From the NCBI GenBank assembly GCA_937873795.1, contig CALMWE010000268.1, positions 32 to 64,031 of the forward strand: DNA of 64,000 nt. Direction: 5' to 3'. The DNA is from an uncultured Bacillales bacterium (lineage in GTDB: Bacteria; Bacillota_I; Bacilli_A; RFN20; CAG-826). A program made the position numbers and the translations under genes. The stretch's first letter is position 1. Every line of letters begins with the position of its first letter. This document shows, in pieces, positions 43,784-63,863 of this stretch. The notes beneath the pieces were generated by a model that did not search any database, had not been told where the DNA came from, and saw only the letters and a list, made by a program, of their open reading frames with translations.

Positions 43784-46700
43784 ATGAACATTGCTTCACT
43801 CAGTACCGCTATTCTCACGAATCTTCCGATTGCGCCCGATCAAGTCCAATTGTATTTCACATTGGGCTTTTTCGTCATCGTCCTATTCCTTGTCCTCGGT
43901 TTCCTCATCGGCCTATGGCGAGGGATTTGGAATGCCAGCTTCCGATTAATCTTTGTCGGTGGCTTGGTCATTGTCGCGTTCCTCTTCACGCGCAACATCG
44001 CTGATGCCCTCAGCAACATCGATATCAAAGCGTTCCTCGCGAACTTTGGTGTCAACCTCACGACCATCGATGTGCCTCTGGGTGAAGATACGATCGTTGT
44101 GGAAGTGACCAGCGCCCGCGAAATGGTCCTCTCCTTAATCTCCCAAGCCTACGAAGCCTTTGGCCTTGGATCGGCCGATTCCGCTGCCGCCTCGGAACTC
44201 ATCCTGGCGTTGGCGTTGGTCTTTATCCGTTACATCATCTTCATTGTCGAAGCACTCCTCATCGTCTTCGTCATTGATCCGCTGAGCGGTCTGCTTTACC
44301 ACCTCATCTTTAAATGGTTCATTCCCAAACCCGTTCGCAAACACATGAAAAAACGCCTGATCGGCGGTTTCGAAAACATGGTCAAGGTGGGCTTAGTCAC
44401 CACCATGATGATGATTCCGTTTACTTCATTGCTTAATACCATCAACCAAGCCGTTCGCGATCGCGATACCGTTCGTGTAGAAGGTAATAGCGAAACTTAC
44501 GACACGATGATGTCGTTCTTGGATGCTTATAATAACTCTGCTTTCGCTCAAATCTTATTTAACTGGTCTGTCAACGAAGACGGCAAAACGCTGGACGTGG
44601 TGCTGATGGACTTTGTCACGCAAGAAAACATGGATGATGCTACCTTGGCGTTATCTACGGAAATGTATACCGTCGCTCAAATCGGGACCACCCTGATTTC
44701 TTCGGGCATCATCGAAGATGCCCAAGTTGCTCTATCGACTCAAATCTTAACCAATGAAGACCTCGTTTCTTCCTTGTTCTTAAGCTTAGCCAACTCCGCC
44801 TTGATCGTGAAAGCCATCCCGATCGCGTTAGCGGTCGCGATGAACATGCCTGAGGTCCAAGAATACGTGGATCCCACGCTCTTAGATTTCGATGGCGTCG
44901 ATTGGCGCGAAGAACTCCTCAATTTGAGCACGATCACCAATCAAGTCGTGGCCTCGGGTGTCGTCACCTCGATTTTGAATGCCGGCGATGATCCCAACGC
45001 CGTGCCGGTCGCGGCCCTCCGTTCGTTGACCGCAGCAACGGCCCATGACGATGTCAAAGCGGCTTTAACCGCGATTGACGATTCCGAATTCTTATCGCAA
45101 GTCATCCCTGCCGTTCTCTACACCATGGTTCAAAGCGAAATCGCCACGCCGCTCCCTGAAGGAAGTCTCGGCCTTTCGACGTTCCTCCCGACCGACTGGG
45201 CAGACTATGAAGACTTCCACTTCGGTGAAGAACTTGGACTTGTTTACGATACTTTCTACAACCTCATGAATGTCACGCCGGACTTTACCGACATGGTCAT
45301 TGATACGCTCTTCACGCAAACGGAAGAACCCAGCCCTGCCATCCGAACCACCAAAAATGCGCAATCCAACTCGGATCCGTATTCCTATGGCGGCGGTGGC
45401 TTGGTCCGTGATCCTTCCTATATCTTAGGCGTCTGGACCAAAGATGACCTGATTGCCGAAATCCGTGATAACATCGATCCCATCCTTGCTTTGATCGTCG
45501 GTGCTACCGATGATGACGGCGATCCGCTCAACGTGGATGCCGAAGGCAAAACCGACTTGACCGTCGCGGGAGCCAAACCCTGCATCCTCGACTCGGATTT
45601 ATTGATGTCAGGCATGCGCGGAATCCTTGATTATGGCTTGACTCAATTAGGCAGCATGGACGCCCTGACTTCCATGGGCTTTGCCCTTGATGAAACTAAA
45701 AAAGATGAAGTCTTGACCGACCTCGAAGGCGCGACCTCGGGTGAACGCCGTGTCAACTTCAAACGCGAATACGGCTCAGTCTTAGGCATCGTCGGTGCCT
45801 TGATCGGCAACGATAAACTCGTCGAAGCCTTAGGACTTACCTCCTCCGAAAGTTCATCCTCGGAGCAAAGTTCCGCAGCCGTCCAAGCGGACAACCCTGA
45901 AACCGAACCTGGTGCCAAAACACCGTTACGTTCCTCCGTCGATTCTTCCAGTTCCAGCTCTTCCGAAGATAACGCCGTCTTAGACCTCTTCCAAGATGAA
46001 GAAGTCCGCGAATACATCAAAGATGAAGTGTGCCCGCGTCTGGATAATTCCCACTTGATGGGATTCCTCTTGCCAGATATCCTTGAGGCCGTTGTCGGCG
46101 GTACGGACTTTACCGAAATCCGCGACTTCATCGGACTCGATGTCACCGATTTGAACTTTGATCTCGATTCGATCGGTACCGAAATGGGCGTGTTCATTGA
46201 TTTGATGGGTTATGCCCTCAACGTCATGGATGCGGACATGAACGATATCGAAACGTTCATCGGCGAACACGCCGGCGATATCACCGGAATTCTCGATTGC
46301 ATCTATCAATCCAACATCTTCAACCCGAAAGATGCGTTGGGCAATTTCGAAAGCGAAAACTATTACACCATCCTTGAAACCATCTTCACCGGAAGCGGCG
46401 ACTTTGGTTTTGATCCCGATGAAGTCTCCGCTGCCGTCCGCAGCGTGGATGAAACCGGATGGGCGACCACCTATGACGAAGAAGGCAATGTTGTCCAATA
46501 TGGCGAAAACTATTACATGATCCACACGATTTCCACCGTGTTTGACGAAGGCTTGTTCGATTTGATGGGCGAAACCAATATTTTGACCGCTCTCAACTCG
46601 CCCGAATACGATGGTGCTATTACCGCCGTCTTCTCTTCGATTGAAGATTCCGAAGTCATGTCCAGCTGTTTCGGAGGCCTCTTGGATAACCTCTTCAGTG

Positions 46701-49672
46701 GGGATACCACGATCGTCGACCCGGATGGCCTGGGAACCAGTTTCCGCAACGTCACCGACTGGGCCGCAGAAGGCGCCAACCTCGAATTGATGCTCGACAC
46801 CCTCAATACCTTTGGTAATGACCTAGAGGGCATCGACTTCATGGACTTCTCCGCCGAGAACGTCGAAAGCCTGTTGACCGAACTGGCCCACAGCGGCATC
46901 TTTGATGATCCCGACGGCGATTACCTCTTAGGCGAATTCCTCTATTCGAAATTCATCGGCGCCGGCATGGGCGAATACCTGCTGGATAAAGATGAAGTCT
47001 CTACCGATCCGTCTCCCTACGATGAAGTCCATAGCGACTTCCTCAGTGTCGGACCGACGACCAGCGAAGCTGATAAATTAGCTTGGGAACAAGAAATCAG
47101 CGCCATCGCCAATGTCATCGGGGCCGTCAATGATTTGGAAACCGCGCTTGGTTCCACCGATGGACTCGGCGCGTTGACCAATGGCAGTGCCAGTGCCGCG
47201 CAAATCGAAACCGTCGTCTTAGCGGTCAACGATTGCTCGGTGCTCCGTATGGCCATCTACAATGTCTTCGATGATATGTTGGGCGGAGGTTCCATGAACA
47301 TGGGCAGCCTCAATCCGTCGGATGCCAATACCGCCATCCTCATCGACTGCACCAAAGCCGAACGTGCCACCGAAATCGGCTACACGCTCGACATCTATGA
47401 TGCCGTCCAAACCTTGGCGCTCGATACCGGCTTCAGCGAAGCCAACCTCAACGCCGATACCATCGAAACGATGTTAACCAATTTGCATAATTCCAAACTC
47501 TTCAATACCATCAACGAAGACCATTCGCGCCTTGCCGGTGACTTGACCGTGTTTGAACAAACGATCAAGATGATCGAACAAACCGCGACGCTGGATGATT
47601 ATGTCTACAAACAATCGGCCGAAGTTTTACGCGATGGCTTATTGGAAGATGATATTCTCTTGATCGGCAACAACCTCGCCGGAACCACCCTCGATGTCGA
47701 TGGTTGGCTCGGTGTCGGCGGTGAAATCGCCAAACTCGGCGATTTGATGCAAGCCTTCAAAGATACCGCTCTGACGTTCACTTCCTTTGGTACCGATGGC
47801 GCCAACGCCGTCTCCACCTTAATGGATACGCCCGAAGGCATCATCAAAGTCCAAAACTTGCTCCTCGCCGTCAACCATTCCGAACTCATGTATCCGGCCA
47901 TCCCGAACTTATTTGATACGATGCTGACCGCGACCGATGTCGGTATTACCGGCGTCGACCTGTCCGCTGCCAATACCCACTATGTGGGTGACCGCGGCGA
48001 AGGTGCCTATCCCGACAGCGAGATCACTTCGATTACCGACCTGTTCTCGCAAATGAAGGATTTGGCGTCCACGTCCTATAACGACTTGTCCGCGTTAACC
48101 ACCGATACCCTCGATGATATCGAAGATCTTCTGACCAGCTTAGCCGAATCGGAAATCTTCCATCAACAAGGCGCCAGCAGTGGCGTCAATAGCGATCCGA
48201 CCGTCTTTGAACAATTGATGGTCAAGATCATGGATGACACCGGTATCAGCGGCCAAATCAACGATACCAACAACCCCAATCCGCTTTACTACGACGGCCT
48301 CGTCTACAAATTCGCCTCCGCTCATGAAAAAGCGTTATACCTCGTTGTCAATTTCGAAACGATCAACGATTCCGGTGATTTGTTTACCACCAGTTGGACC
48401 GGTACCGGCGGTGAAATCGAAGCCTTCATCCGCATCTTCCGCGAAATCAAACGCGCGATGCCGAGCATGACGACGGCGACCATCGATCCGACCGCCATCA
48501 ACCCGACCAATGTCTCTGACATCTTAGCCGCCTTGAACTACTCGAACCTCGGTTCGGATGCGGTCCCCAAGGTCATTAAAGACAGCTTCACCGATATCAG
48601 CATCAACACTTTCACCGGCGGAAACGAAGAATACTATCTGACCCCGATGGAATATGCGGATACCGAACTCGATGACAAAGATTATTCAACCCTGATTCCG
48701 ACCACGACTTCGACCGGCCTCTTCCATATCTTGCTCAACGCGTTCTGGGATGAAACCCTCGACCCGGATGGCTACATCGATATGAGTGGTGGGTTCAGCT
48801 TGGCCAACTATGTCAATGGCGGACACTCAACCTCCAACATCCTCCAATTCCTCGAAGGGTCCAAGATCTTTGGTCCGACCGTTCCGGGAAAAACCTATAA
48901 GGTTCGGTCGTTGGTTTTCTACAACTGGCTCGACCAAATCGAAATGGAAAAATACATCCGTACCCTCGCTAATGGCTCGATGACCGCCGATGAACGTTGC
49001 ACCAAACTTGAAAACGTGTTTGCCGGCGACTTCGACTATGTCATGGAAAGCGGCTCGTTGGATGGCCTTGTGGTCAACCTCAACGGCTTCACCGGTGCCG
49101 TCAACGCCGGCTCCTTGGAAGGCTTTGGCCAGCAAGCCTCGGCAATGATCTCCTCGACCTATGCCGTCGATGGTTCCAATAACATCGTCGACCGTGCTTA
49201 CTTGTCGAGCGAACTCGTGGCCGGGTTCTACACCGATATTCTCGCTTCTGAATATGCACTCGCCGGACGTACCGGCTTCGAAATCGACTTCTTCGCCTCC
49301 GACTTTGCCGAGTTGAATCCTACCGAAGCACTCGGTGTTAATGGAGCGCTTGAAGTTGTCCCCGAAATCAACGCCATCGTCAGCGGTGGAACGACTCAAG
49401 CCGAAGTCGACGCTTTACGCGCCAGCTTCGTGGACATGGGCAGTTATGTGGCTTGCCACACGCCCGGACCTGCTTGGAATAACGGCAACTCGCACATCGC
49501 CCAACTCATCTACGCGGCGCGTGTCGTGACCAACGCCAACTTTGTCGGCGCTAAAGCTGCTTACGAATTCCTCAATCCGGGTCAAACCATCGAAGATGAT
49601 CCGTATGTCTCCGGATTCGTCTTTGAAACCGAAGGCGGAAAGATTTGCGACTACTACGAAACCTTGATCTAG
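43784..49672 (+). CDS. giant (1,962 aa) acidic repeat protein with CvpA-like N-terminal membrane anchor, function unknown
   Basis: One uninterrupted ORF with TATAAT at 43750-43755, a GGAG RBS and a terminator at 49682-49712. It has N-terminal TM helices (GLWRGIWNASFRLI) and a D/E-rich remainder with recurring motifs. Confidence 0.85.
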   Translation: MNIASLSTAILTNLPIAPDQVQLYFTLGFFVIVLFLVLGFLIGLWRGIWNASFRLIFVGGLVIVAFLFTRNIADALSNIDIKAFLANFGVNLTTIDVPLGEDTIVVEVTSAREMVLSLISQAYEAFGLGSADSAAASELILALALVFIRYIIFIVEALLIVFVIDPLSGLLYHLIFKWFIPKPVRKHMKKRLIGGFENMVKVGLVTTMMMIPFTSLLNTINQAVRDRDTVRVEGNSETYDTMMSFLDAYNNSAFAQILFNWSVNEDGKTLDVVLMDFVTQENMDDATLALSTEMYTVAQIGTTLISSGIIEDAQVALSTQILTNEDLVSSLFLSLANSALIVKAIPIALAVAMNMPEVQEYVDPTLLDFDGVDWREELLNLSTITNQVVASGVVTSILNAGDDPNAVPVAALRSLTAATAHDDVKAALTAIDDSEFLSQVIPAVLYTMVQSEIATPLPEGSLGLSTFLPTDWADYEDFHFGEELGLVYDTFYNLMNVTPDFTDMVIDTLFTQTEEPSPAIRTTKNAQSNSDPYSYGGGGLVRDPSYILGVWTKDDLIAEIRDNIDPILALIVGATDDDGDPLNVDAEGKTDLTVAGAKPCILDSDLLMSGMRGILDYGLTQLGSMDALTSMGFALDETKKDEVLTDLEGATSGERRVNFKREYGSVLGIVGALIGNDKLVEALGLTSSESSSSEQSSAAVQADNPETEPGAKTPLRSSVDSSSSSSSEDNAVLDLFQDEEVREYIKDEVCPRLDNSHLMGFLLPDILEAVVGGTDFTEIRDFIGLDVTDLNFDLDSIGTEMGVFIDLMGYALNVMDADMNDIETFIGEHAGDITGILDCIYQSNIFNPKDALGNFESENYYTILETIFTGSGDFGFDPDEVSAAVRSVDETGWATTYDEEGNVVQYGENYYMIHTISTVFDEGLFDLMGETNILTALNSPEYDGAITAVFSSIEDSEVMSSCFGGLLDNLFSGDTTIVDPDGLGTSFRNVTDWAAEGANLELMLDTLNTFGNDLEGIDFMDFSAENVESLLTELAHSGIFDDPDGDYLLGEFLYSKFIGAGMGEYLLDKDEVSTDPSPYDEVHSDFLSVGPTTSEADKLAWEQEISAIANVIGAVNDLETALGSTDGLGALTNGSASAAQIETVVLAVNDCSVLRMAIYNVFDDMLGGGSMNMGSLNPSDANTAILIDCTKAERATEIGYTLDIYDAVQTLALDTGFSEANLNADTIETMLTNLHNSKLFNTINEDHSRLAGDLTVFEQTIKMIEQTATLDDYVYKQSAEVLRDGLLEDDILLIGNNLAGTTLDVDGWLGVGGEIAKLGDLMQAFKDTALTFTSFGTDGANAVSTLMDTPEGIIKVQNLLLAVNHSELMYPAIPNLFDTMLTATDVGITGVDLSAANTHYVGDRGEGAYPDSEITSITDLFSQMKDLASTSYNDLSALTTDTLDDIEDLLTSLAESEIFHQQGASSGVNSDPTVFEQLMVKIMDDTGISGQINDTNNPNPLYYDGLVYKFASAHEKALYLVVNFETINDSGDLFTTSWTGTGGEIEAFIRIFREIKRAMPSMTTATIDPTAINPTNVSDILAALNYSNLGSDAVPKVIKDSFTDISINTFTGGNEEYYLTPMEYADTELDDKDYSTLIPTTTSTGLFHILLNAFWDETLDPDGYIDMSGGFSLANYVNGGHSTSNILQFLEGSKIFGPTVPGKTYKVRSLVFYNWLDQIEMEKYIRTLANGSMTADERCTKLENVFAGDFDYVMESGSLDGLVVNLNGFTGAVNAGSLEGFGQQASAMISSTYAVDGSNNIVDRAYLSSELVAGFYTDILASEYALAGRTGFEIDFFASDFAELNPTEALGVNGALEVVPEINAIVSGGTTQAEVDALRASFVDMGSYVACHTPGPAWNNGNSHIAQLIYAARVVTNANFVGAKAAYEFLNPGQTIEDDPYVSGFVFETEGGKICDYYETLI
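45839..45970 (+). repeat. Ser-rich low-complexity linker inside the giant ORF
   Basis: TSSESSSSEQSS...RSSVDSSSSSSSED, encoded by mixed Ser codons (tcc/agt/tca/tcg/agc/tct). Confidence 0.7.
46277..48589 (+). repeat. divergent protein-level repeats of about 195-230 aa within the giant ORF
   Basis: Recurring motifs: LL..L..S.IF at nt 46277, 46859, 47459 and 48107. L.AVN.S.L...IP..F at 46625, 47213, 47858 and 48521. W.G.GGEI at 47705 and 48395. Confidence 0.55.
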
Positions 49673-53457: not shown

Positions 53458-54930
53458 ATGGAAAAGTTCATTCTTTCGATTGACCAAGGAACGACCTCGA
53501 CACGGGCCATTCTTTTTGATTCCAAAGGGACCAACCGCTTTCAGGCCGTCAACGAAGTCAAATGCTTATATCCTCATCCGGGTTGGGTCGAACAAGATCC
53601 GCTCGAGCTTTGGGTCAGCGTCATCAATGTCATCAACGAGGTGTTGATTAAAGCCAATCTGACCATGAAGAATATCGATTCCATCGGCATCACCAATCAA
53701 CGTGAAACCACGGTGGTTTGGGATAAAGAAACGGGCATGCCGATTTATAACGCCGTCGTTTGGCAAAGCCGCCAATCGCTTTCCATCTGCGACAAATTCG
53801 AAAAGCAGAAAACATTGATTCACCACAAAACAGGACTTCTTTTAAACCCGTATTTCTCTGCGTCAAAAATCCGTTTCATCCTCGATGCGACAAAAACGCA
53901 AAAACGTGCCGAAGCCGGTGAGCTCCTTTTCGGAACCATCGACAGTTGGATTTTGTATAAACTGACCAAAGGCGAAGTGCATGCGACCGATGTCACCAAT
54001 GCCTCTCGCACCATGCTCTTCAATATTTTTGAAATGAAATGGGACGATGAATTGCTCAAGTTGTTCGCAATTCCAAAATCCATGCTTCCTTCCGTCAAAC
54101 CTTCTTCCCATAAATTCGGAGAAGCCAAATTCTTCAAACCGGCAGTCCCGATTTGCGGTGTTGCGGGAGACCAACAAGCCGCTTTATTCGGTCAAGCATG
54201 TTTCAAAACCGGTGAATCCAAGAACACCTATGGGACTGGATGTTTCATGCTGATGAATATCGGTTCAACCCCGATTCTCTCCAAAAAAGGATTATTGACC
54301 ACCGTTGCCTGGGAAGTCGAAGGAAAAGTCACCTACGCTTTGGAAGGCTCGGTTTTCGTCGGCGGTGCCGCGGTCCAATGGTTGCGCGATCAGATGAAAT
54401 TAATCAAAGACGCTCCCGACAGCGAACGCAGTGCCTGTGAAATCAAAGATTCCGAAGGCGTCTATTTCGTCCCGGCATTTGTTGGCTTAGGAACACCTTA
54501 TTGGGACAGCGATGCTCGTGGCGCCATCTTCGGCCTTACCCGCGGAACCACCAAATACCACATTGTCCGTGCCACCCTCGAAGCCATTGCCTATCAAAGT
54601 AAAGACGTCATCGAAGTCATGAAAAAGGAAGCCCAAACCGAATTAGTGACCTTAAAAGTCGACGGTGGAGCAACCGCTAATCACTTTTTAATGCAGTTCC
54701 AATCCGACATCTTGCAATGTTCTTTGAAACTTCCGCAATGTCTTGAAACCACGGCCTTGGGCGCTGCCTACTTGGCAGGATTAACTACTGGCTTTTGGAA
54801 AAACTGTGAAGAAATCCAAAGAATCCATTCTTACCAAGCCGTTTATGAACCGTCCATGGATCCTCTTGAAATCAACCGACGGTACAAGGGTTGGAAAAAG
54901 GCTGTCGCCTCCACAAGAACCTTCCGATAA
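53458..54930 (+). CDS. glpK: glycerol kinase
   Basis: ILSIDQGTTSTRAILFD, GITNQRETTVVWD, GDQQAALFGQ and DGGAT motifs. 490 aa. Confidence 0.96.
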   Translation: MEKFILSIDQGTTSTRAILFDSKGTNRFQAVNEVKCLYPHPGWVEQDPLELWVSVINVINEVLIKANLTMKNIDSIGITNQRETTVVWDKETGMPIYNAVVWQSRQSLSICDKFEKQKTLIHHKTGLLLNPYFSASKIRFILDATKTQKRAEAGELLFGTIDSWILYKLTKGEVHATDVTNASRTMLFNIFEMKWDDELLKLFAIPKSMLPSVKPSSHKFGEAKFFKPAVPICGVAGDQQAALFGQACFKTGESKNTYGTGCFMLMNIGSTPILSKKGLLTTVAWEVEGKVTYALEGSVFVGGAAVQWLRDQMKLIKDAPDSERSACEIKDSEGVYFVPAFVGLGTPYWDSDARGAIFGLTRGTTKYHIVRATLEAIAYQSKDVIEVMKKEAQTELVTLKVDGGATANHFLMQFQSDILQCSLKLPQCLETTALGAAYLAGLTTGFWKNCEEIQRIHSYQAVYEPSMDPLEINRRYKGWKKAVASTRTFR

Positions 54931-54944
54931 AAAAACAGCGCGAA

Positions 54945-54972
54945 AAAAAAGATGGTTAGTAACCATCTTTTA
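54945..54972 (+). terminator. rho-independent terminator after glpK
   Basis: AAAAGATGGTT-AGT-AACCATCTTTT. Confidence 0.8.
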
Positions 54973-55016
54973 ATTTTGATAGGTTTGACCTAAAATATTA
55001 CTATGAGGTTTTTGCG

Positions 55017-57368
55017 ATGAACATGGAAGAAATGCTTCAAGCGGATATTCTTCTTGCGCCACGCTCCTGGCACGATTTTTTTCTTTTGCAACGAAACAAA
55101 AACCCTTTTTTGAAATTCAAATTAATGACCAAAGAAGATTTTCTAAAAGGTTTCTTCTTTGAATATTCCGATGAGGCCCTTCTTGATTTGATGGTTCATC
55201 ACGATGTTTCCTTTGAACTAGCAAAAACATTTTTGGATAACCTTTACTTTTTGCCTCAGACGTTTGCTGAAGATGCCCAAATCCAAAATCTTCAGATGAT
55301 AAAAAATGAGTTGGAAGAAAAAAAGCTTTTAAAACATGATGATTTGTTTCTGCCCTTGCTGAAAAACAAGAAAATCACCGTGTTTGGTTATGATGAAAAG
55401 GATGGAGAACTTCTTTCAATCCTCAAAAAGGTATCCGGAAGTTTTTCCTTTGGCCATCTTCCGTCATTAAACAAGACCTACCACCTTCAAGCCCATCAAT
55501 TCGAGACCATCGAAGACGAATTACAATGGGTCTTCAACCAAATCTCCAATCTTGTTTCATCTGGAGTGTCAGTGGATGATATCTTTTTATTTGACCCTCC
55601 CTCGGAATACACTTTTTTGTTGAAAAAAATGAGCGCGTTCTATGGAATACCTCTTAATATGCCAAGCCATTTGACCCTTGCTTCGTCAAAACCCGGTATT
55701 GATTTTTTGGCTTCATTGCTGCAAGGTCAATCACCCGAGGAAGCGTTATCCTCTTTATCAATCGACAGCCAAGATTCCATTGAAAGACAACTCGTTGATG
55801 AGGTCACAAGACTTCTTCCACTCAATCTTTCCTCCCAAAAGTATCACGACTTTTTTCTCAACAAGTTACGGGCAACTTCGCTGACGGAGCCTAAATTCGA
55901 CCACGCGGTCAGTATCTTGAAGGGTAATTTCATTCCCGAAAACAGTCACATTTTCCTTTTAGGATTCAACGAAGGCAATTTCCCGAAAGTCCATAAAAAC
56001 GTGGATTATTTGGATGACTCCAAGAAACGTTGGCTGGGCCGTAATGACTCAGATTTCGAAAACCAAAAAGATGAAAAGGCATTATTGAGTTTACTGGACG
56101 GAACGCATGCGGTGACCGTGTCTTTCAAAAACCAATCTTTAACCGATACCTTCAAACCTTCGCCGATGATATCGAGGCTCAATATGCCGATCTTGGCAAA
56201 TCCCATTTCGGTGGTCGAATACGGCAAAGAATGGGCAAAAATCCGGCTGGCAGAATATATGGATGGGGAACGGAAATATCAGAACAGAAATCCGCTTCAA
56301 ACCTCATTATCCGAACAAATCTCAATTCCTTTTCGCCAATACGACCATGGTTTTACCGGGGTAAATGCTGTTAACCCTGAATCCATGGGGCGATATTCCT
56401 ATACCAGTATCAGCGAGTTTTTTGAGTGTCAATTCAAGTATTACCTCAGTCGTGTTTTAAACATTGATCCGTTTGAAGATACTTTTTACACCAAATTCGG
56501 AAAGCTGGCCCACGCCGTTTTAGAAAGAAAGTACATGGATGCTTTTGATTTTGACACGGCCTTTGAGGAAGAAATTCAAGCTCAAGAATTTTCCACAAAA
56601 GAAAAGGTCTTTTTAAGTCGGCTCAAAACCGAGATTTTCAATGTGATCCAGTTTAATGAGGATCATGAAACAGCCATGGACAGCAAAGAGATTCTCACAG
56701 AGAAAAAGGTCGAACTTGTCCTTGATCCCAAAATCACGCTTGTCGGTGTTATCGATAAGGTCGTATTAACCGGGAAAACAACCCGTTATATCAGCCTCGT
56801 GGATTATAAAACCGGCACAGTCGATTTTAACCCCAATCATATCCGCTTTGGTTATTCCTTGCAGCTACCGATATATGCCTTGCTTGCCTCAAGAGACTCT
56901 TATCTTTCGAATCATGAACTCATCGGTTTATACATTCAAACCATCATCACTAAAAAACTCATTCGTCCTTCCGGAAAAGACGCTCAAAAATTCTATTCTG
57001 ATCAATTCCGCTTGAGTGGTCTTTTTACCGATGACTTTGAGAAGCTCCAAACTTTCGATATTACATTCCGGGACTCAAGATTCGTCAAGTCTCTGAAAGT
57101 TACGAACAGCGGAAATCTTGCGGTCTTTTCTCAAAAGAGGGCATTTTCGCAGGAGGTCCTTGCCCGTTATATTGAAACGACGATTCAAAAAATTAAAGAA
57201 GCAGATACTGCGATAAAAGCCAATGATTTCAGGATTAATCCAAAATCGCTCGATAACGGCGAATTACCTTGCCGTTATTGCACCTATCGCGATATTTGTT
57301 TCCGGGACGAAAAGGATATTGTGAATATCAATACAAAGGAGAACAACGATGGCGAGATGGACGCTTGA
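55017..57368 (+). CDS. addB: AddB-type helicase-nuclease subunit B (compact, Fe-S cluster type)
   Basis: 783 aa. PD-(D/E)XK motif ISLVDYKTG, a Cys at FECQFKYY and C-x2-C-x5-C (CRYCTYRDIC, nt 57270-57299). No GxGKT motif in the N-terminus. Overlaps addA by 20 nt. Confidence 0.8.
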   Translation: MNMEEMLQADILLAPRSWHDFFLLQRNKNPFLKFKLMTKEDFLKGFFFEYSDEALLDLMVHHDVSFELAKTFLDNLYFLPQTFAEDAQIQNLQMIKNELEEKKLLKHDDLFLPLLKNKKITVFGYDEKDGELLSILKKVSGSFSFGHLPSLNKTYHLQAHQFETIEDELQWVFNQISNLVSSGVSVDDIFLFDPPSEYTFLLKKMSAFYGIPLNMPSHLTLASSKPGIDFLASLLQGQSPEEALSSLSIDSQDSIERQLVDEVTRLLPLNLSSQKYHDFFLNKLRATSLTEPKFDHAVSILKGNFIPENSHIFLLGFNEGNFPKVHKNVDYLDDSKKRWLGRNDSDFENQKDEKALLSLLDGTHAVTVSFKNQSLTDTFKPSPMISRLNMPILANPISVVEYGKEWAKIRLAEYMDGERKYQNRNPLQTSLSEQISIPFRQYDHGFTGVNAVNPESMGRYSYTSISEFFECQFKYYLSRVLNIDPFEDTFYTKFGKLAHAVLERKYMDAFDFDTAFEEEIQAQEFSTKEKVFLSRLKTEIFNVIQFNEDHETAMDSKEILTEKKVELVLDPKITLVGVIDKVVLTGKTTRYISLVDYKTGTVDFNPNHIRFGYSLQLPIYALLASRDSYLSNHELIGLYIQTIITKKLIRPSGKDAQKFYSDQFRLSGLFTDDFEKLQTFDITFRDSRFVKSLKVTNSGNLAVFSQKRAFSQEVLARYIETTIQKIKEADTAIKANDFRINPKSLDNGELPCRYCTYRDICFRDEKDIVNINTKENNDGEMDA

Positions 57369-60300
57369 ACAACAAAAAGCCATCGATGTCAGAGGCCATA
57401 ATATCATCGTCAGCGCAGGCGCCGGCAGTGGCAAAACGGCTGTTTTGACCGAACGGGTTTTCCAAATTTTAAAGCAAGGGGCTTCTCTGGATGAGATTCT
57501 TGTTTTGACATTCACCAACGCCGCGGCTTCCGAAATGAGAGCCCGCATTCGCAGCAAACTGCGAAATGAACCAAGCCTAGAGAACCTTGCATCCAAAATC
57601 GACGCCAGTGATATTTGCACATTCGACGCTTATGCGTTGTCGTTGGTTAAAAAGTATCATTATGTGCTTGGAGTCAGCGCCAATGTCAGCATCATCGATG
57701 AGAACATCGTTAAAATTAAGAAACGGAAACTGCTCAATTCAATTTTTGATAGTCTCTATGAGCAAAAGAACGAACCTTTCTTGACCTTCATCAATAAATA
57801 CGCGCTTCGCTCGGATGACGACCTTCAAGATTTTGTTCTCCGAATTGATGAAATGATCAATCTAAAAATTGATAAAAAAGGTTATCTTAAGAACTACCTT
57901 TCCGAGTATTATTCAATTTCAAGAATTCAACACGATTTAGAAGAGTTCCGTCAACATATCCGTTCGATTGCAATCACCACACAGCGGGGAGCTTTGGAAT
58001 ACGAAAATCCTAAAATGAGCGACAGTGTTTGCAAAGCGCTTGAGCCCATCATTACGGCTCCGGATTATGACACATTTAATGAGGCCCTCTCACTGTTTAA
58101 ATTCCCGTCGCGCAACAAGCTCTCTGAAGAAGATTCCTTGCTTCACGAATCGCTTAGTTCGGCCTGTGATAAATTCACGAGCTATGCCGCTATTGGAAAG
58201 AGCTCTGACGTCATTTCACGATATCAAGCTACCCAAGAAACCGTGGCGCTTTTGCTAGAAATAATTGAAAAACTGAATGAAAAGCTCGACCGTTTTAAAA
58301 AGACCTATGAGGTTTATACTTTCTCTGACATCGCGAAGATGGCTTTGATGTTAGTCAAAAATACCGAAGTGGGTAAAACTCTTCAAAAGAAACTCAAGTT
58401 CATCATGATTGACGAATATCAAGACACCTCGGACATTCAGGAAGAATTCGTTTCAAACATCGGTAATGAAAATGTTTATATGGTCGGAGATATCAAGCAA
58501 TCGATTTATCGATTCCGGAATGCCAACAGCGAAATTTTCGCTAACAAGTATTCCCAATATAAAAAAGGCCTTGGCGGTGAAGCCATTGATTTAAATAAAA
58601 ACTTCCGTAGCCGGTCAGAAGTCATTCAAGATATCAACACTCTGTTTTCGGATATCATGTCAGCCGATTTCGGTGGTGCCGATTACCGCCGTGAACACCT
58701 CATTGAGGTAGGAAACATAGCTTACGACCAATTAGGGGCAAACTCCGAAAATCACCATCTTGAAGTTTTGCGGTATGAAAAAAAGGACCCGGGTGAAAAA
58801 ATGGAAATCGAAGCCGCTCTAATCGCCGAGGATATTTTGTCTAAGATCCAAAAGGGCTATTCGGTTTTCGATAAAGACAAGAATCTGCCAGGTCAAGCGG
58901 AGTTCAAAGACTTTGCCATTTTAATCGACCGAAAAACAAAATTCGAAATATTCCAAAAAGTCTTTTCGGAGTATGGCATTCCCCTAAAAGTTGAGAAAGA
59001 TGCCGACCTTTCCGATTCCGATGTCATTTTGGCTTTCCAAAATCTCGTCCGTTTGTTCTTCTTAACCTCGCAAAACCTTTTCGATGAGACATTTAGGCAC
59101 TCTTTCATGAGTATCGCTCGCAGTTTCCTTTTCCGTTTGCCCGACCAAATGATTTTGGATATTTTGAAATCGAAACAATACGAACAAAACGAAATCATAG
59201 TCAAAATGCGAAAAATTACAGAAGCGAGAAAATCGTATCCTCTGAGTGAAATTCTTTCCTCTCTCGTGGACGAATTCGCCTTTTTCGAAAAAACCGTCGA
59301 AGTTGGAAATGTTGCGGAAAATCGCCATAAGATTCAAGGGCTGATCGAGTTATCCTTGTCACTCGAAAAGATCGGATATGGAATCAAGGAGTTCGTGGAT
59401 TACTTTGATGACCTTTCCACCTACGAGATTACGCTTGCGGTTCCCAATCAAGAAGTGGTTGAAAACTGCGTGCGTTTGATGAGCATTCATAAATCTAAAG
59501 GATTGGAATTTCCCATCATCTATTACGCAGGCCTTGGTAGTCGTTTTAATGATCAAAACATGAAGAGCAGTTTCTTGGCGGATTCTCGTTACGGAATCGT
59601 TCTTCCGATTATTGACGAAATGGAAGCCAGCAACCTCTATCATTACCTCATCAAAATCAATGAGCGGAAAGCGGAACTCAGTGAACAAATCCGTTTGTTC
59701 TATGTGGCGTTGACCCGTGCCAAAGAAAAAATGATTTGTCTGTACCAAATTCCACAAAAAGAAAAGGTCCCGCTTCTTTCAGTCGATGGGGCGAACTCTT
59801 TTTCGGACTTCATTCGGTTTGTCGAGGCAGAACAAAAGTATGGAAAAAATGTCGAACTGACCGGAATCAAGACCAAGTTTTCAAAAGAAAATATTAAGGA
59901 TTTGCACGTAATTTTAAAAGAAAATTCCATCCCAGCGATGGTTATCACTTCGAAACGGGCTAGTAAAACATCCTCCGAAAAAGTGGATCAAAAACTACTT
60001 GATTTCGGTACCCGTATTCACGCTTTGCTTGAAATTGTGGATTTCAAAAAATCGGATTTGAGTTTCATTACGGATGTCCGTGAAAAAGCACTGATTGAGA
60101 AAGCCCTAAAAGCGTCCATTTTTCAATCACTGGATGGTGCTGAAATTTTCAAAGAATATCAATTTATTGACACCGATAATCATGTTAACGGAATCATCGA
60201 CTTGCTTCTCGTTTTTAAAGAACATTGTTTGATTGTTGACTATAAGCTTAAAAACTTGGATGATGAAGCATATCGTCAACAATTGACGGTCTACCAACGT

Positions 60301-60387
60301 TTCGTTGAACAATCGTTCAAACGAAACACTGAATGTTTCTTATTATCGGTTCTCACCGGAGAGGTTAAAAAGGTTAATACACTATGA
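57349..60387 (+). CDS. addA: AddA-type ATP-dependent helicase/nuclease subunit A (UvrD/Rep superfamily 1)
   Basis: 1,012 aa. Helicase motifs AGAGSGKT, IDEYQDT, VGDIKQSIYRFRNA, SIHKSKGLEFP and LFYVALTRAKEKM. C-terminal nuclease motif GIIDLLLVFKEHCLIVDYKL. Confidence 0.9.
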   Translation: MARWTLEQQKAIDVRGHNIIVSAGAGSGKTAVLTERVFQILKQGASLDEILVLTFTNAAASEMRARIRSKLRNEPSLENLASKIDASDICTFDAYALSLVKKYHYVLGVSANVSIIDENIVKIKKRKLLNSIFDSLYEQKNEPFLTFINKYALRSDDDLQDFVLRIDEMINLKIDKKGYLKNYLSEYYSISRIQHDLEEFRQHIRSIAITTQRGALEYENPKMSDSVCKALEPIITAPDYDTFNEALSLFKFPSRNKLSEEDSLLHESLSSACDKFTSYAAIGKSSDVISRYQATQETVALLLEIIEKLNEKLDRFKKTYEVYTFSDIAKMALMLVKNTEVGKTLQKKLKFIMIDEYQDTSDIQEEFVSNIGNENVYMVGDIKQSIYRFRNANSEIFANKYSQYKKGLGGEAIDLNKNFRSRSEVIQDINTLFSDIMSADFGGADYRREHLIEVGNIAYDQLGANSENHHLEVLRYEKKDPGEKMEIEAALIAEDILSKIQKGYSVFDKDKNLPGQAEFKDFAILIDRKTKFEIFQKVFSEYGIPLKVEKDADLSDSDVILAFQNLVRLFFLTSQNLFDETFRHSFMSIARSFLFRLPDQMILDILKSKQYEQNEIIVKMRKITEARKSYPLSEILSSLVDEFAFFEKTVEVGNVAENRHKIQGLIELSLSLEKIGYGIKEFVDYFDDLSTYEITLAVPNQEVVENCVRLMSIHKSKGLEFPIIYYAGLGSRFNDQNMKSSFLADSRYGIVLPIIDEMEASNLYHYLIKINERKAELSEQIRLFYVALTRAKEKMICLYQIPQKEKVPLLSVDGANSFSDFIRFVEAEQKYGKNVELTGIKTKFSKENIKDLHVILKENSIPAMVITSKRASKTSSEKVDQKLLDFGTRIHALLEIVDFKKSDLSFITDVREKALIEKALKASIFQSLDGAEIFKEYQFIDTDNHVNGIIDLLLVFKEHCLIVDYKLKNLDDEAYRQQLTVYQRFVEQSFKRNTECFLLSVLTGEVKKVNTL

Positions 60388-61043
60388 ATGTTTTCTTACA
60401 AAACTTGATGGATTTATTCAGCGATGAAGATCCGATTATCTATAAAGCAGTTCGACAAAAAAAGGATTGGCTTTTTGTTCCGCTTTTCCTTCGTGGTGAT
60501 ATAAACCAAGTGGCCGATAGCCAAGGGTTAATTCATTATCGGAAAATCGAAGCATTGGTGGACGATGTTCTTCCCTTTGAAAAAGCAGTGCTTCCCGAAG
60601 AACTATCCTTGTCCTCTGATAAAGAAGCCGAAATAAAATCTGCTTACGAGGCCTATCGAGTCCTGCGGCTTGAAACCGATCCCAAGATGCTCTCCGATGC
60701 ACCTTTCTTTGTAGAGTATGACTTTACAAAAATCGACCAAAGAGGTTATCATGCGTTACTTGCCAATTTCTTCCCCTGTCTTTCCATTGAAGAATTGGAT
60801 ATCAAAGCAAACGATGATTTTTCAAAAGTAGTGAATCAACTCAAACCACTGATGGTGGGCCCACATGGACAATGTGTCTTGATTCTGGAAAACCACCTTC
60901 TGATTCAAGACTCGTTTTATGCCCCCGTTTTACGAAAAATCCATGCAAATCCGTCTTCTTCTTTGGAACTTAGAGAGGAACTTCGGCAAATTTGCAAAGA
61001 AAAAGGTATCATATATACGGAGGAACCGACATGCAAGAAGTAA
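60384..61043 (+). CDS. hypothetical protein (219 aa), translationally coupled to addA
   Basis: Its ATG overlaps the addA TGA (ATGA at 60384-60387). No TM helix, P-loop or nuclease motif recognised. Confidence 0.6.
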   Translation: MNVFLQNLMDLFSDEDPIIYKAVRQKKDWLFVPLFLRGDINQVADSQGLIHYRKIEALVDDVLPFEKAVLPEELSLSSDKEAEIKSAYEAYRVLRLETDPKMLSDAPFFVEYDFTKIDQRGYHALLANFFPCLSIEELDIKANDDFSKVVNQLKPLMVGPHGQCVLILENHLLIQDSFYAPVLRKIHANPSSSLELREELRQICKEKGIIYTEEPTCKK

Positions 61044-62206
61044 AACCGTTTGATTCCCAACGTTTTTTTAAAGTCCTTGACGCCTTGAAAGTTCCGGAAA
61101 TTTTAAGTCGGGATTTTCTTTTCGAAATCTATGATACTGTGGTGGAAGGCTTGAATGAATTCGGGAAAACCAACTTGCTTAGTTCCTTCTCAACCGTGAA
61201 TACGCTTTCGGTTATCAGCTATTTGATTAACGAACATTTCTATGGAATGGTCGGTCTTAGCAAAGAAGATATCACCCGTTTCGAAAACGATGAAAAATAT
61301 AAAACCAAGTTAGCCAGCATTGTCATGGACAAATATTTGACCAATGAGCATTTGGAGTACAAAGAAGTTTCTCCTAATTCACGTTTTTATCCGCCTATTT
61401 CTACCATGAAGCTTTATTTGAATTTTATCTTAGGAATGCTGACCCGTTTTAAGAAAAATAATCCTTATGAAACTCTCATTGTCGACATGTTGAATAAAGC
61501 TTTTTCGATGGGAAATTGCATCACTGATTTACTGATCAATGGCTTTGAAACTGAAGCTTTTTCGACATGGCGAACGCTTCATGAAACCGAATGTATGACC
61601 GCCATCCTATTTAAATATGGCAAACCGGTTGTTGAACGTTATCTTCGCCACATGACTTATGCCATTGCTTTCCGAAACGGTATCGGCAGCAAAGAAAAGC
61701 AAGACGAAATCTTTGTGGAAATCAAGGCCAACATGCGTGCGTTGGATCTTAAAAGCAAAGACATGAAACGTTATATCGAATACGGCTGGTTGATGGCCGT
61801 TCCAAATATTGAGCAAGTTGAAAACTTTAAGCTCAATTTCCGTGACGGTGTTGAACGTGTGGCCGAACTAAGTCAATACAGTTCAACCTATGAGATGAGC
61901 AGCGAGATTGCACACAGTTCTCCGTTGTTAATCTATTCACGGAAAACCTTCTTTAATGACCTGACGTTGGTCAATCTCTATGAATCGTTCTTCCGCCTTG
62001 AAAAGATCTTCTTCACAGTCTACACAAGTTCAATCTCCGAAGATGAACAACAAAAATACGCCGCCATGCGGAATGTCTATTATGCCCAAATGGCAGCAAT
62101 TCATCAACGGGAAAAAGGCAGGTTCATCCTAGCAGCCAAAAAACGGGGTTCGAAAGTTGAAAACCCCGGCAAAACCGACTCAGAAACAAAAGAAGCGGAC
62201 GATTAA
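61031..62206 (+). CDS. hypothetical helical protein (391 aa), last gene of the addBA operon
   Basis: GGAGG lies 7 nt before the ATG at 61031, which overlaps the upstream ORF by 13 nt. The protein is helical and K/E-rich with an acidic/basic C-terminal tail. I could not assign a family with confidence. Confidence 0.6.
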   Translation: MQEVKPFDSQRFFKVLDALKVPEILSRDFLFEIYDTVVEGLNEFGKTNLLSSFSTVNTLSVISYLINEHFYGMVGLSKEDITRFENDEKYKTKLASIVMDKYLTNEHLEYKEVSPNSRFYPPISTMKLYLNFILGMLTRFKKNNPYETLIVDMLNKAFSMGNCITDLLINGFETEAFSTWRTLHETECMTAILFKYGKPVVERYLRHMTYAIAFRNGIGSKEKQDEIFVEIKANMRALDLKSKDMKRYIEYGWLMAVPNIEQVENFKLNFRDGVERVAELSQYSSTYEMSSEIAHSSPLLIYSRKTFFNDLTLVNLYESFFRLEKIFFTVYTSSISEDEQQKYAAMRNVYYAQMAAIHQREKGRFILAAKKRGSKVENPGKTDSETKEADD

Positions 62207-62221
62207 TCCGCTTCTTTTTTT
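62189..62221. terminator. bidirectional terminator between the addBA operon and the convergent kinase gene
   Basis: AGAAGCGGA-CGATTAA-TCCGCTTCT stem followed by T7. The stop codon of the 391-aa ORF lies in the loop. Confidence 0.85.
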
Positions 62222-63863
62222 ATACGTCTTGGTAGCAAGAATCGCCGATGAATTCGCGAATGAGTGAGTTGTTGGGTACCCATTTGTCTTCCATGTCGAC
62301 GAAGTATTTCAACATTCTCACGAGACGCTCGGCAACAGGGTAAGCCGGAGATTCCGGTTCAATCTTGCATAAGAGCGGCATCGCATATTTCTTCATGATG
62401 CAAAGTTCGTAAGAGAGTAGTGAGTTAAACACATAGTCGGCGCCTTCTTGGGTTCCGTAAATCCAAGTGAATTCGCCTTTGCGGACGCTGGGCCACATGC
62501 CGATGGTTTCCGAAGCGGAAGCGTTCCGGAATTTCTTGTCACGGACGATGCGACGGAGAAGCCGTAAGTCGGTGAGGGAAATCGGGTTGTGGTTGTCCAA
62601 GTTGATTTGTGCTTGAGGAGAAATGTAAATCTTGAATTTTTGGTGCTTCGGAATGAGAGTGGTCAGTTGGTCATTCAGAGCGTGAATGCCTTCGATGATG
62701 ATGATCGTGTTGTTATCGATCTTCAAGATTCTGCCTGGGATGCGCTTTCCAGAGACAAAGTCGAACTTCGGAAGTTGAACTTCGCTGCCTTGAATCAAAT
62801 CGAGCATGTTTTGGTTGAAGGTGGCGATATCTAAGGCTTGAATCGACTCAAGGTCGGGTTGACCGTTTTCATCTTTAGGTGCTTGACCACGGGGCAAGTA
62901 GTAGTCATCGATCGAAATCCGAATCGGACGGATTCCACGGGATAAAAGTTCAATACGGAGACGGTTGGCGAAGGTTGTTTTACCTGAACTGGAAGGTCCG
63001 GCAATACAAACAAGACGGACATTGTCGATATCCTTTTCAATTTCTTCGCCTAATTCGCACAGCATGCGGTTGTGACGGGCTTCGCACATGTTAATGAATT
63101 CGATACTGCCTTGCGTGTCAATGTGTTCATTGATGCCGGCGACTGAATCCAAACCGGTGATTTTGGCCCAAGAGTGCGATTCCTTAAGGGTCTTTCCGAA
63201 AATCGGAGCGTCTTCAAAGGGAGGAATCTCACCATGGCATTCCGAACGCGGGTATTGAATGATGATGCCGGGCAAATAAAGCCGTAAACGCCAGGATTTC
63301 AAATAGCCGGTGCTGGGAACCATGTGGCCATACATATAGTTCAAATAGCCATCGCATTCGTATAAATGGACCGTCTTTTCGGGACGATACTTCAAGATTT
63401 CTAGTTTATCGTGGAATCCTCTTTCGGAATAAAGTTTGGAGGCTTCTTCGTTAGTCACGATGGTGCGGTTAAAAGGAATGTCGCGTTGAATCAATTTTTC
63501 CATTTCAACACGGATTGCTTCGACCATTTTGGTGTCCGCATGGACGCCTTCAGTCAAAATTTGCACGAAAATGGAACGCGAAACGTTGTAACAAAGACGA
63601 ACTTCGATTTGCGGATAGACGCGTTCAAAAGCCATCGCCACCAAATAACGGAGCGATGTTTCATAGGTGCGAATGGCATCTTGGTCTTTGACGGTCAGAA
63701 ATTCGATTTCCGAATCGTAATAGACTTCATACGTCAACTCGCGGATGCGGTTGTTGACCTTGGCGCAAACAAGGTCTTTATTCTCACTGCCTACCAGCGA
63801 AAGCAGGCTGACTTTTTTGGAATGTTCGGTGACTTTTCCATTGTACTTGATCGTAAACTTCAT
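62220..63863 (-). CDS. uridine-kinase/phosphoribulokinase-family P-loop kinase with N-terminal TGS/ThrRS-like domains
   Basis: 547 aa. The N-terminus resembles ThrRS-type additional domains. The Walker A IAGPSSSGKTTFANRL is followed by a uridine-kinase-like core (IIIIEGIHALN). Confidence 0.7.
   Translation of the reverse strand: MKFTIKYNGKVTEHSKKVSLLSLVGSENKDLVCAKVNNRIRELTYEVYYDSEIEFLTVKDQDAIRTYETSLRYLVAMAFERVYPQIEVRLCYNVSRSIFVQILTEGVHADTKMVEAIRVEMEKLIQRDIPFNRTIVTNEEASKLYSERGFHDKLEILKYRPEKTVHLYECDGYLNYMYGHMVPSTGYLKSWRLRLYLPGIIIQYPRSECHGEIPPFEDAPIFGKTLKESHSWAKITGLDSVAGINEHIDTQGSIEFINMCEARHNRMLCELGEEIEKDIDNVRLVCIAGPSSSGKTTFANRLRIELLSRGIRPIRISIDDYYLPRGQAPKDENGQPDLESIQALDIATFNQNMLDLIQGSEVQLPKFDFVSGKRIPGRILKIDNNTIIIIEGIHALNDQLTTLIPKHQKFKIYISPQAQINLDNHNPISLTDLRLLRRIVRDKKFRNASASETIGMWPSVRKGEFTWIYGTQEGADYVFNSLLSYELCIMKKYAMPLLCKIEPESPAYPVAERLVRMLKYFVDMEDKWVPNNSLIREFIGDSCYQDV

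Follow-up and report, generated by a model that had tools for sequence, protein, structure and literature searches.

A conserved orfX-orfY gene pair of RF39-type Bacilli combines a DUF5677 protein with a new small family and is probably linked to AddAB by position rather than function

A described counterpart of the locus considered here is the addB-addA-sbcD-sbcC region of Bacillus subtilis, in which an AddAB-type pair is followed by two more genes of the same transcription unit. The stretch of DNA that was analysed, referred to as the window, comprises 64,000 nucleotides from an uncultured Bacillales bacterium (assembly GCA_937873795.1, contig CALMWE010000268.1, positions 32–64,031). It contains a similar arrangement, formed from addB- and addA-like genes and two genes, orfX and orfY, whose products have 219 and 391 residues. 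In contrast to SbcD and SbcC, neither OrfX nor OrfY contains a Metallophos or an SMC-like ATPase domain (Pfam and NCBIfam, E up to 1), and the two downstream genes outlast the deletion of addBA in relatives, which is not the behaviour of a repair partner.

A second point of comparison is provided by the Pfam family DUF5677, to which OrfY belongs. Classical members of this family, exemplified by Slin_6990, share the layout of OrfY, with an N-terminal helical region, the DUF5677 core and a C-terminal helix. However, the classical proteins are sporadic and occur in varied settings such as plasmids and islands, whereas the subfamily of the RF39-type Bacilli is inherited vertically, keeps its synteny and is far better conserved, and its basal lineages possess a dedicated upstream partner, orfX, that was not seen with the classical members examined. 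The pair also recalls type II toxin–antitoxin (TA) and two-gene abortive-infection modules (for example those of the HEPN type), in which the upstream gene is small and fast-evolving and overlaps the larger gene that follows it. Finally, the predicted fold of OrfX is weakly similar to one solved structure of the tRNA 2'-phosphotransferase Tpt1/KptA.

The comparison made below indicates that orfX-orfY is probably an ancestral, vertically inherited module consisting of a DUF5677 enzyme and a dispensable partner. Its link to AddAB would be positional and not functional, because in relatives addBA has been removed several times over, with orfY left in the same place. The evolutionary and anatomical part of this explanation is held with high confidence; the description of the products as an enzyme plus its partner is tentative and, taken by itself, rather doubtful.

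A scan with the OrfY alignment, using one genome per species, gave 248 relatives, and all synteny counts refer to the best 80 loci of these. The 80 loci derive from RF39-type Bacilli, a group of uncultured bacteria that abound in the gut and have reduced genomes, and include Candidatus Enteromonas, Alloenteromonas and Coprobacillus sp. CAG:826. Many of the GenBank 'cleanbin' records that carry an RF39-type locus are titled Escherichia coli, Bacteroides uniformis, Faecalibacterium prausnitzii or Roseburia hominis. These implausible titles (among them those of loci L012–L015, L019, L028, L035, L043 and L062) point to mislabelled bins.

When the loci were searched by tblastn with the window genes, a common backbone was observed, consisting of glpK, addB-addA where present, orfY and a minus-strand PRK-like gene. 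The addA gene lies 5' of orfY in 30 of the 80 loci; in 24 of them the two genes are no more than 64 nt apart. In 45 loci glpK is found 5' of orfY and the whole 20-kb locus is devoid of addBA; an AddB fragment alone precedes orfY in two loci, and in three the upstream region is short or otherwise different. In the addBA-less loci glpK is separated from orfY either by 16–100 nt or by an open reading frame (ORF) of 80–298 residues. A hidden Markov model (HMM) of the AddB N-terminus matches this ORF in at least 20 addBA-less loci, with E values of 4e-29 to 1e-3; these remnants include L013 9353–9958, L019 9384–9926, L050 9164–9961, L036 9055–9951 and those of about 16 other loci. The presence of AddB N-terminal remnants between glpK and orfY indicates that addBA was deleted in place while orfY was kept. 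The ORFs of 180–265 residues found 5' of orfY in addBA-less genomes were also considered as distant homologues of orfX and rejected, as the OrfX HMM gave E values above 0.5 and they correspond to the AddB remnants.

In a neighbour-joining tree of OrfY, which is rough and not a species tree, lineages with and without addBA are interleaved, which points to repeated loss of addBA, in roughly 8–10 independent events. The outcome is that addBA has been deleted again and again while orfY was retained at the same chromosomal place. The independence of orfY from AddAB rests on the in situ deletion remnants, and the counts are those of the orfY locus. They document the repeated in situ loss of AddAB, a double-strand-break repair enzyme, in the RF39-type order.

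The conservation of OrfY is in keeping with its retention. Across the order, the window protein is 50–56% identical to its counterparts, compared with 30–40% for AddA, 23–31% for AddB and 56–69% for GlpK (tblastn with the window genes). As OrfY is conserved order-wide and better than AddAB, it is likely to be an important gene product. Database searching returned 1908 relatives, the best 120 of which are 50–95% identical and come from metagenome bins labelled 'Bacilli bacterium'; a tblastn search with OrfY found nothing in phage genomes and a single match of 25% identity in plasmids. OrfY exceeds the gathering threshold of Pfam DUF5677 (PF18928; score 45.1 bits, cut-off 27.1 bits, E 1.5e-11), with residues 150–302 aligned to profile positions 4–156 of 166, and 12 of 12 aligned RF39 relatives also match the family (best E 6e-13). 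The first-pass annotation of this DNA, made from the sequence alone, had called both genes uncharacterised; this holds for orfX, which is in no family library, and, as regards family, does not wholly hold for orfY.

Although their mutual identity is only about 50%, 12 aligned OrfY relatives have more than 100 invariant columns, and the invariant blocks include GFETEAFSTWRTLHE, LKSKDMKRYIEYGW, NFRDGVE and YEMSSEIAHSS. The DUF5677 core, encoded by positions 61478–61936 on the plus strand, contains R181, H184 and E185 (in the motif WRTLHE), H207, W253, Y287 and H295. OrfY is thus a strongly constrained DUF5677 member that defines a conserved subfamily in RF39-type reduced-genome Bacilli. An AlphaFold2 model of the protein is all-alpha, with 17 helices, a mean predicted local distance difference test score (pLDDT) of 81.4 and a predicted template modelling score (pTM) of 0.73. 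No second family recurred consistently in permissive Pfam scans of the 12 RF39 relatives and of 16 further DUF5677 proteins, and a search of the PDB with the OrfY sequence profile gave no meaningful match. A DinB-like or zincin-like metal site was considered and rejected, there being neither an HExxH motif nor a fold match.

The orfX gene is found with orfY in every lineage examined. A broad OrfX HMM, searched against all ORFs of 94 loci, matched 11 loci that represent seven lineages, and in seven of seven an orfY homologue lies directly 3' of orfX, with either a 1-nt gap or an overlap of 8–13 nt. The order orfX then orfY is therefore strict, with or without addA. The window clade and locus L002 have the arrangement addA-orfX-orfY, as does L091, in which orfY is cut by the contig end. 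In Coprobacillus sp. CAG:826 (L063 and L084) addA is followed by three opposite-strand ABC transporter genes, a 127-nt intergenic region, orfX and orfY, with the orfY start 1 nt after the orfX stop. The inserted genes, located on the minus strand at L063 6637–9192, encode a substrate-binding protein, a permease and an ATPase, and as a result of this insertion orfX-orfY has its own upstream intergenic region. L087 contains orfX-orfY with an 8-nt overlap. In L088 the pair precedes a gene for a tRNA or rRNA U5-methyltransferase, and in L089 it stands between a divergent RsmB/F-type methyltransferase gene and a convergent PRK-like gene; neither locus contains addA. The proteins of the distant pairs are 37–43% (OrfY) and 23–34% (OrfX) identical to those of the window.

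Among the 80 species loci, orfX is present in three and orfY stands without it in 77. On the OrfY tree, the outgroups and the basal lineages possess orfX, which is absent from the large crown group, so that the pair looks ancestral, with orfX lost later.

The OrfX proteins form a previously unclassified small family. No family in Pfam, NCBIfam, PADLOC or PHROGs was matched, apart from a chance-level MTase_II match in PADLOC (E 0.032), and a permissive Pfam scan of 28 relatives gave no consistent family. Seventeen close relatives were found, all full-length, and an exhaustive profile search over 1.84 billion representative proteins returned 78 clusters, of which 63 reach an E value of 1e-10 or below. 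The best 60 family proteins are stand-alone proteins of 156–229 residues, nearly all of about 200–220; the weaker matches include fragments of 41–158 residues. These homologues, together with the 1908 of OrfY, demonstrate that both ORFs are real genes. OrfX is acidic (isoelectric point 5.0), and its AlphaFold2 model (pLDDT 81.7) has an alpha/beta fold. When 28 sequences are aligned broadly, L11 and K26 alone are invariant, with F65 and Y122 nearly so, which makes a catalytic role unlikely. These features suggest that OrfX, small and fast-evolving, serves OrfY as a partner or regulator without catalytic activity, and a dispensable one, as most of the order has lost it. The small family strictly coupled to DUF5677, and the distinct core-genome branch of this domain of unknown function, are both new.

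The classical DUF5677 proteins consist of 400–430 residues and include Slin_6990 from plasmid pSLIN03 of Spirosoma linguale (101 bits). Their distribution is sporadic, with 1–2 contigs per cluster. The Slin_6990 gene is flanked by those of an IS4 transposase and a reverse transcriptase, with a DUF4238 fragment on its 5' side; other classical members were found beside RtcB, beside a 1627-residue STAND-like protein and among hypothetical genes (one each), and no linkage to AddAB was seen in the contexts examined. On pSLIN03 (L086 3919–6708) a 214-residue C-terminal DUF4238 fragment directly follows the IS4 transposase and is itself followed by the DUF5677 gene, and DUF4238 with DUF5677 may represent another two-gene arrangement.

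Aligning the RF39 OrfY profile with the classical DUF5677 profile (hhalign) gives a probability of 98% and an E value of 2.3e-13 over 181 columns, covering OrfY residues 113–302. The two groups have the motifs WRTLHE, ERYLxH, YGW and Y..M.S...H in common. OrfY residues R181, H184, E185, H207, W253, Y287 and H295 align with the classical invariant residues R200, H203, E204, H226, W279, Y307 and H315, and Y204 and G252 of OrfY are likewise common to both groups. With these shared residues identified, the family becomes experimentally testable. The classical sequence ARWRTLHE places R198 and H203 in an R-x4-H spacing, whereas the RF39 proteins have Ser or Thr at the first Arg (S-T-W-R181-T-L-H184, that is R-x2-H); because of this substitution OrfY lacks the HEPN R-x(4-6)-H motif. 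Membership of the DUF5677 family as a whole in HEPN may nonetheless be followed as a lead from the classical sequences; Foldseek with the whole 391-residue OrfY model revealed no HEPN structure (best E 0.33). PDB profile searches with the classical alignment, and with a third alignment of the analysis, gave no meaningful match, and neither of the two papers found to mention DUF5677 assigns it a function.

The invariant Arg, His, Glu and Ser clusters in this conservation pattern suggest an enzyme as the most likely identity of OrfY, centred on the conserved Arg/His/Glu...His...His site, and a nucleic-acid or nucleotide-related hydrolase could be guessed at. Three points weigh against the explanation preferred here. 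The enzymatic nature of OrfY is deduced solely from residue conservation, with no similar fold found by Foldseek in PDB or BFVD; the ancestral arrangement had orfY directly behind addA; and the deletions tend to keep the 5' end of addB. A functional link between OrfY and AddAB may therefore have existed in the past, and is compatible with the data presented. The retention of the addB 5' end would fit a dependence of orfY on the addB promoter and not on the AddAB protein.

In the window the four genes are closely joined. The addB-like gene (55017–57368, plus strand, 783 residues) encodes a PD-(D/E)XK nuclease (PDDEXK_1, E 6e-27) and the addA-like gene (57349–60387, plus strand, 1012 residues) a UvrD-type helicase with a C-terminal PD-(D/E)XK nuclease (UvrD-helicase, E 9e-51). 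AddA has a Walker A motif at residue 23. No Walker A motif is present in the 783 residues of AddB, which contains exactly four cysteines (471, 752, 755 and 761) in an iron-sulfur pattern. The two proteins thus show the features of an AddAB helicase-nuclease, namely the helicase and C-terminal nuclease of AddA and the nuclease and four-Cys iron-sulfur motif of AddB. AddA matches NCBIfam addA_Gpos with E 6e-125 and 418.6 bits, under the equivalog cut-off of 707.65, and the best NCBIfam match of AddB, addB_Gpos, reaches 64.5 bits, far under the cut-off of 903.7. As both fall below these cut-offs, they represent a divergent, shortened version of AddAB.

The orfX gene occupies positions 60384–61043 on the plus strand. 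Its ATG (60384–60386) lies in an ATGA overlap in which the TGA is the stop codon of addA. The orfY gene (61031–62206, plus strand) overlaps orfX by 13 nt and is preceded by a GGAGG ribosome-binding site at 61019–61023, within the 3' end of orfX and separated by a 7-nt spacer from the ATG at 61031. This ATG is taken as the start since the homologues align from it; the mechanical ORF list extends the frame to a TTG at 60992. These coordinates and junctions agree with those first annotated.

A bidirectional intrinsic terminator, common to orfY and the convergent PRK-like gene, is located at 62188–62218 and consists of a 12-bp stem followed by a U run. It is the strongest hairpin of the region, with a folding free energy of -15.9 kcal/mol (z -4.0) and no equally stable structure in 200 shuffles; it is absent from the consensus terminator scan and was confirmed by folding alone. 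Between 55017 and 62188 on the plus strand the consensus scan gave only weak terminator-like matches of 5–8 pairs, which number 16 compared with 10.6 ± 3.1 in shuffled sequences, about 1.7 standard deviations above. At the upstream edge a terminator-like hairpin (54947–54971, plus strand) with an 11-pair stem and a 3-nt loop is found directly 3' of the glpK stop at 54930. It is followed by a promoter-like site, TTGATA-17-TACTAT (54976–55004, plus strand), which has only 9 of 12 consensus matches and may be the promoter of the operon. Promoter-like matches within the unit are at chance level in the consensus scan (16 against 15.9 expected). As they are not enriched, the sequence lends no support to an internal promoter, and this candidate was set aside.

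From the start/stop overlaps, the lack of a convincing internal terminator and the terminator on each flank, addB-addA-orfX-orfY is probably one transcription unit. The first-pass annotation had likewise found no terminator hairpin from the addB start to the end of orfY and considered that the four genes look like one operon, and both statements are supported. In this genome orfX and orfY would be expressed from the addB promoter through read-through and translational coupling. OrfX would be translated in tandem with OrfY as its dispensable small partner, and the two proteins may interact physically.

The block had also been described as richer in AT than its flanks, and the four genes (55017–62206) do have the lowest GC content (0.40) and the lowest GC content at third codon positions (GC3, 0.39–0.45) in the window, the other genes having values of 0.44–0.53 and 0.45–0.64. 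Horizontal transfer as the origin of this AT-rich block was rejected on account of the order-wide synteny and of identities that scale with those of the neighbouring genes. Since the locus is syntenic across the order, the low GC looks like the weak codon bias of a low-expression operon and not like recent transfer.

One alternative to an ancestral module is that orfX-orfY is a defence or TA-like cassette within the addBA operon, with the DUF5677 protein as effector and OrfX as its neutraliser or sensor; this is improbable. The layout, with a small, faster-evolving gene overlapping a larger one, resembles that of a type II TA module, and OrfY shares with such effectors a conserved Arg and His and a wider family tied to mobile elements. 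Classical DUF5677 genes are sporadic accessory genes with plasmid transposase, reverse transcriptase and STAND-like neighbours, the R-x4-H spacing of their products is reminiscent of HEPN RNases, a phage family of PHROGs (phrog_27456) matches the domain, and DUF5677 has been reported as enriched beside serine recombinases (PMC12632615, preprint). However, the one DUF5677 ORF tested in that study was not among the five ORFs reported as phage-protective (PMC12632615). The RF39 subfamily is vertically inherited and syntenic, keeping the same place in all 80 loci, and shows no mobility within the order. The supposed effector is kept alone in 77 of the 80, which is unfitting for a toxin that needs an antitoxin. 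The first Arg of R-x4-H is missing in the RF39 proteins. PADLOC-DB v2 scans matched no defence model for OrfY or for the classical proteins. Among toxin and antitoxin families OrfY gave only a sub-threshold NCBIfam match to the PezA antitoxin (12.7 bits against a cut-off of 290), OrfX gave none, and OrfX has no DNA-binding domain. The passenger cassette considered in the first-pass annotation comes close to the comparative data as far as riding on addBA expression is concerned, and its defence or TA aspect is weak; what rides along is a pair of conserved chromosomal genes instead of a mobile element.

The proposal originally favoured, in which a minimal AddAB has OrfX and OrfY as its accessory or regulatory subunits, acting in DNA-end processing from the slot of sbcD-sbcC, is likewise improbable. 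It draws on the tight translational coupling of orfX to addA, the position of orfY 64 nt or less behind addA in 24 of the 80 loci, its place after addA-orfX in L091 and the window clade, the presence of a DNA-alkylation repair protein among the neighbouring genes, and the fact that addBA deletions always spare orfY. Against this, orfY is kept in the 45 loci in which addBA was deleted in situ and is conserved better than either AddA or AddB. The pair occurs without addA in L088 and L089, beside rRNA or tRNA methyltransferase genes, and 2.7 kb from addA in L063, and the wider DUF5677 family showed no AddAB linkage in the contexts examined. Family scans revealed no nuclease, ATPase or Metallophos signature in either protein, and fit the earlier observation that P-loop, nuclease, helix–turn–helix and transmembrane features are absent from both. 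'AddAB accessory proteins' is a tempting label; the synteny, which the first-pass annotation itself had named as a possible refutation, does not support it, and it has been removed.

A further possibility, for which the chances appear slim, concerns origin and activity. Here orfX-DUF5677 would be the domesticated descendant of a mobile defence-type DUF5677 effector with a His/Arg active site, possibly a nuclease, that is now a core nucleic-acid-processing enzyme of RF39-type bacteria, expressed with AddAB where this is present and persisting as an end- or RNA-processing activity where AddAB has been lost. If true, this would provide the first function for the DUF5677 family, and a case of a defence protein recruited to housekeeping in gut bacteria that have some of the smallest free-living genomes.

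Comparison of the predicted structures by Foldseek, a check proposed in the first-pass annotation, did not assign either protein: OrfY had no significant match (best E 0.33 in PDB and 0.42 in BFVD, mostly to generic helical proteins) and OrfX had one weak Tpt1-like match. The idea that OrfX is an ADP-ribosyltransferase or Tpt1-like enzyme acting with OrfY on nucleic-acid ends draws on this single match, to yeast Tpt1 (7yw4; E 0.042, probability 0.93, TM-score 0.56 normalised to the 120-residue target). It is very improbable, since the match has a query-normalised TM-score of 0.34 and a root mean square deviation of 5.8 Å, no other Tpt1 or ADP-ribosyltransferase structure was matched, no PTS_2-RNA profile match was obtained at E up to 10 with 28 family members, and the 28-sequence alignment has no conserved Arg/His/Glu catalytic set (Arg-His-Arg-Arg or H-Y-E).

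The PRK-like gene (62220–63863, minus strand, 547 residues), which is convergent with orfY, has kept its place next to DUF5677 across most RF39 loci, and also in L089, an outgroup. Its product has a C-terminal PRK/uridine-kinase domain, preceded by an N-terminal half of about 280 residues without family assignment. Elsewhere in the window, an ORF of 1962 residues (43784–49672, plus strand) is without a Pfam match at E up to 0.001. Its GC and GC3 (0.52 and 0.64) are the highest of the window; with N-terminal hydrophobic, membrane-like segments, it may encode a giant surface or membrane protein.

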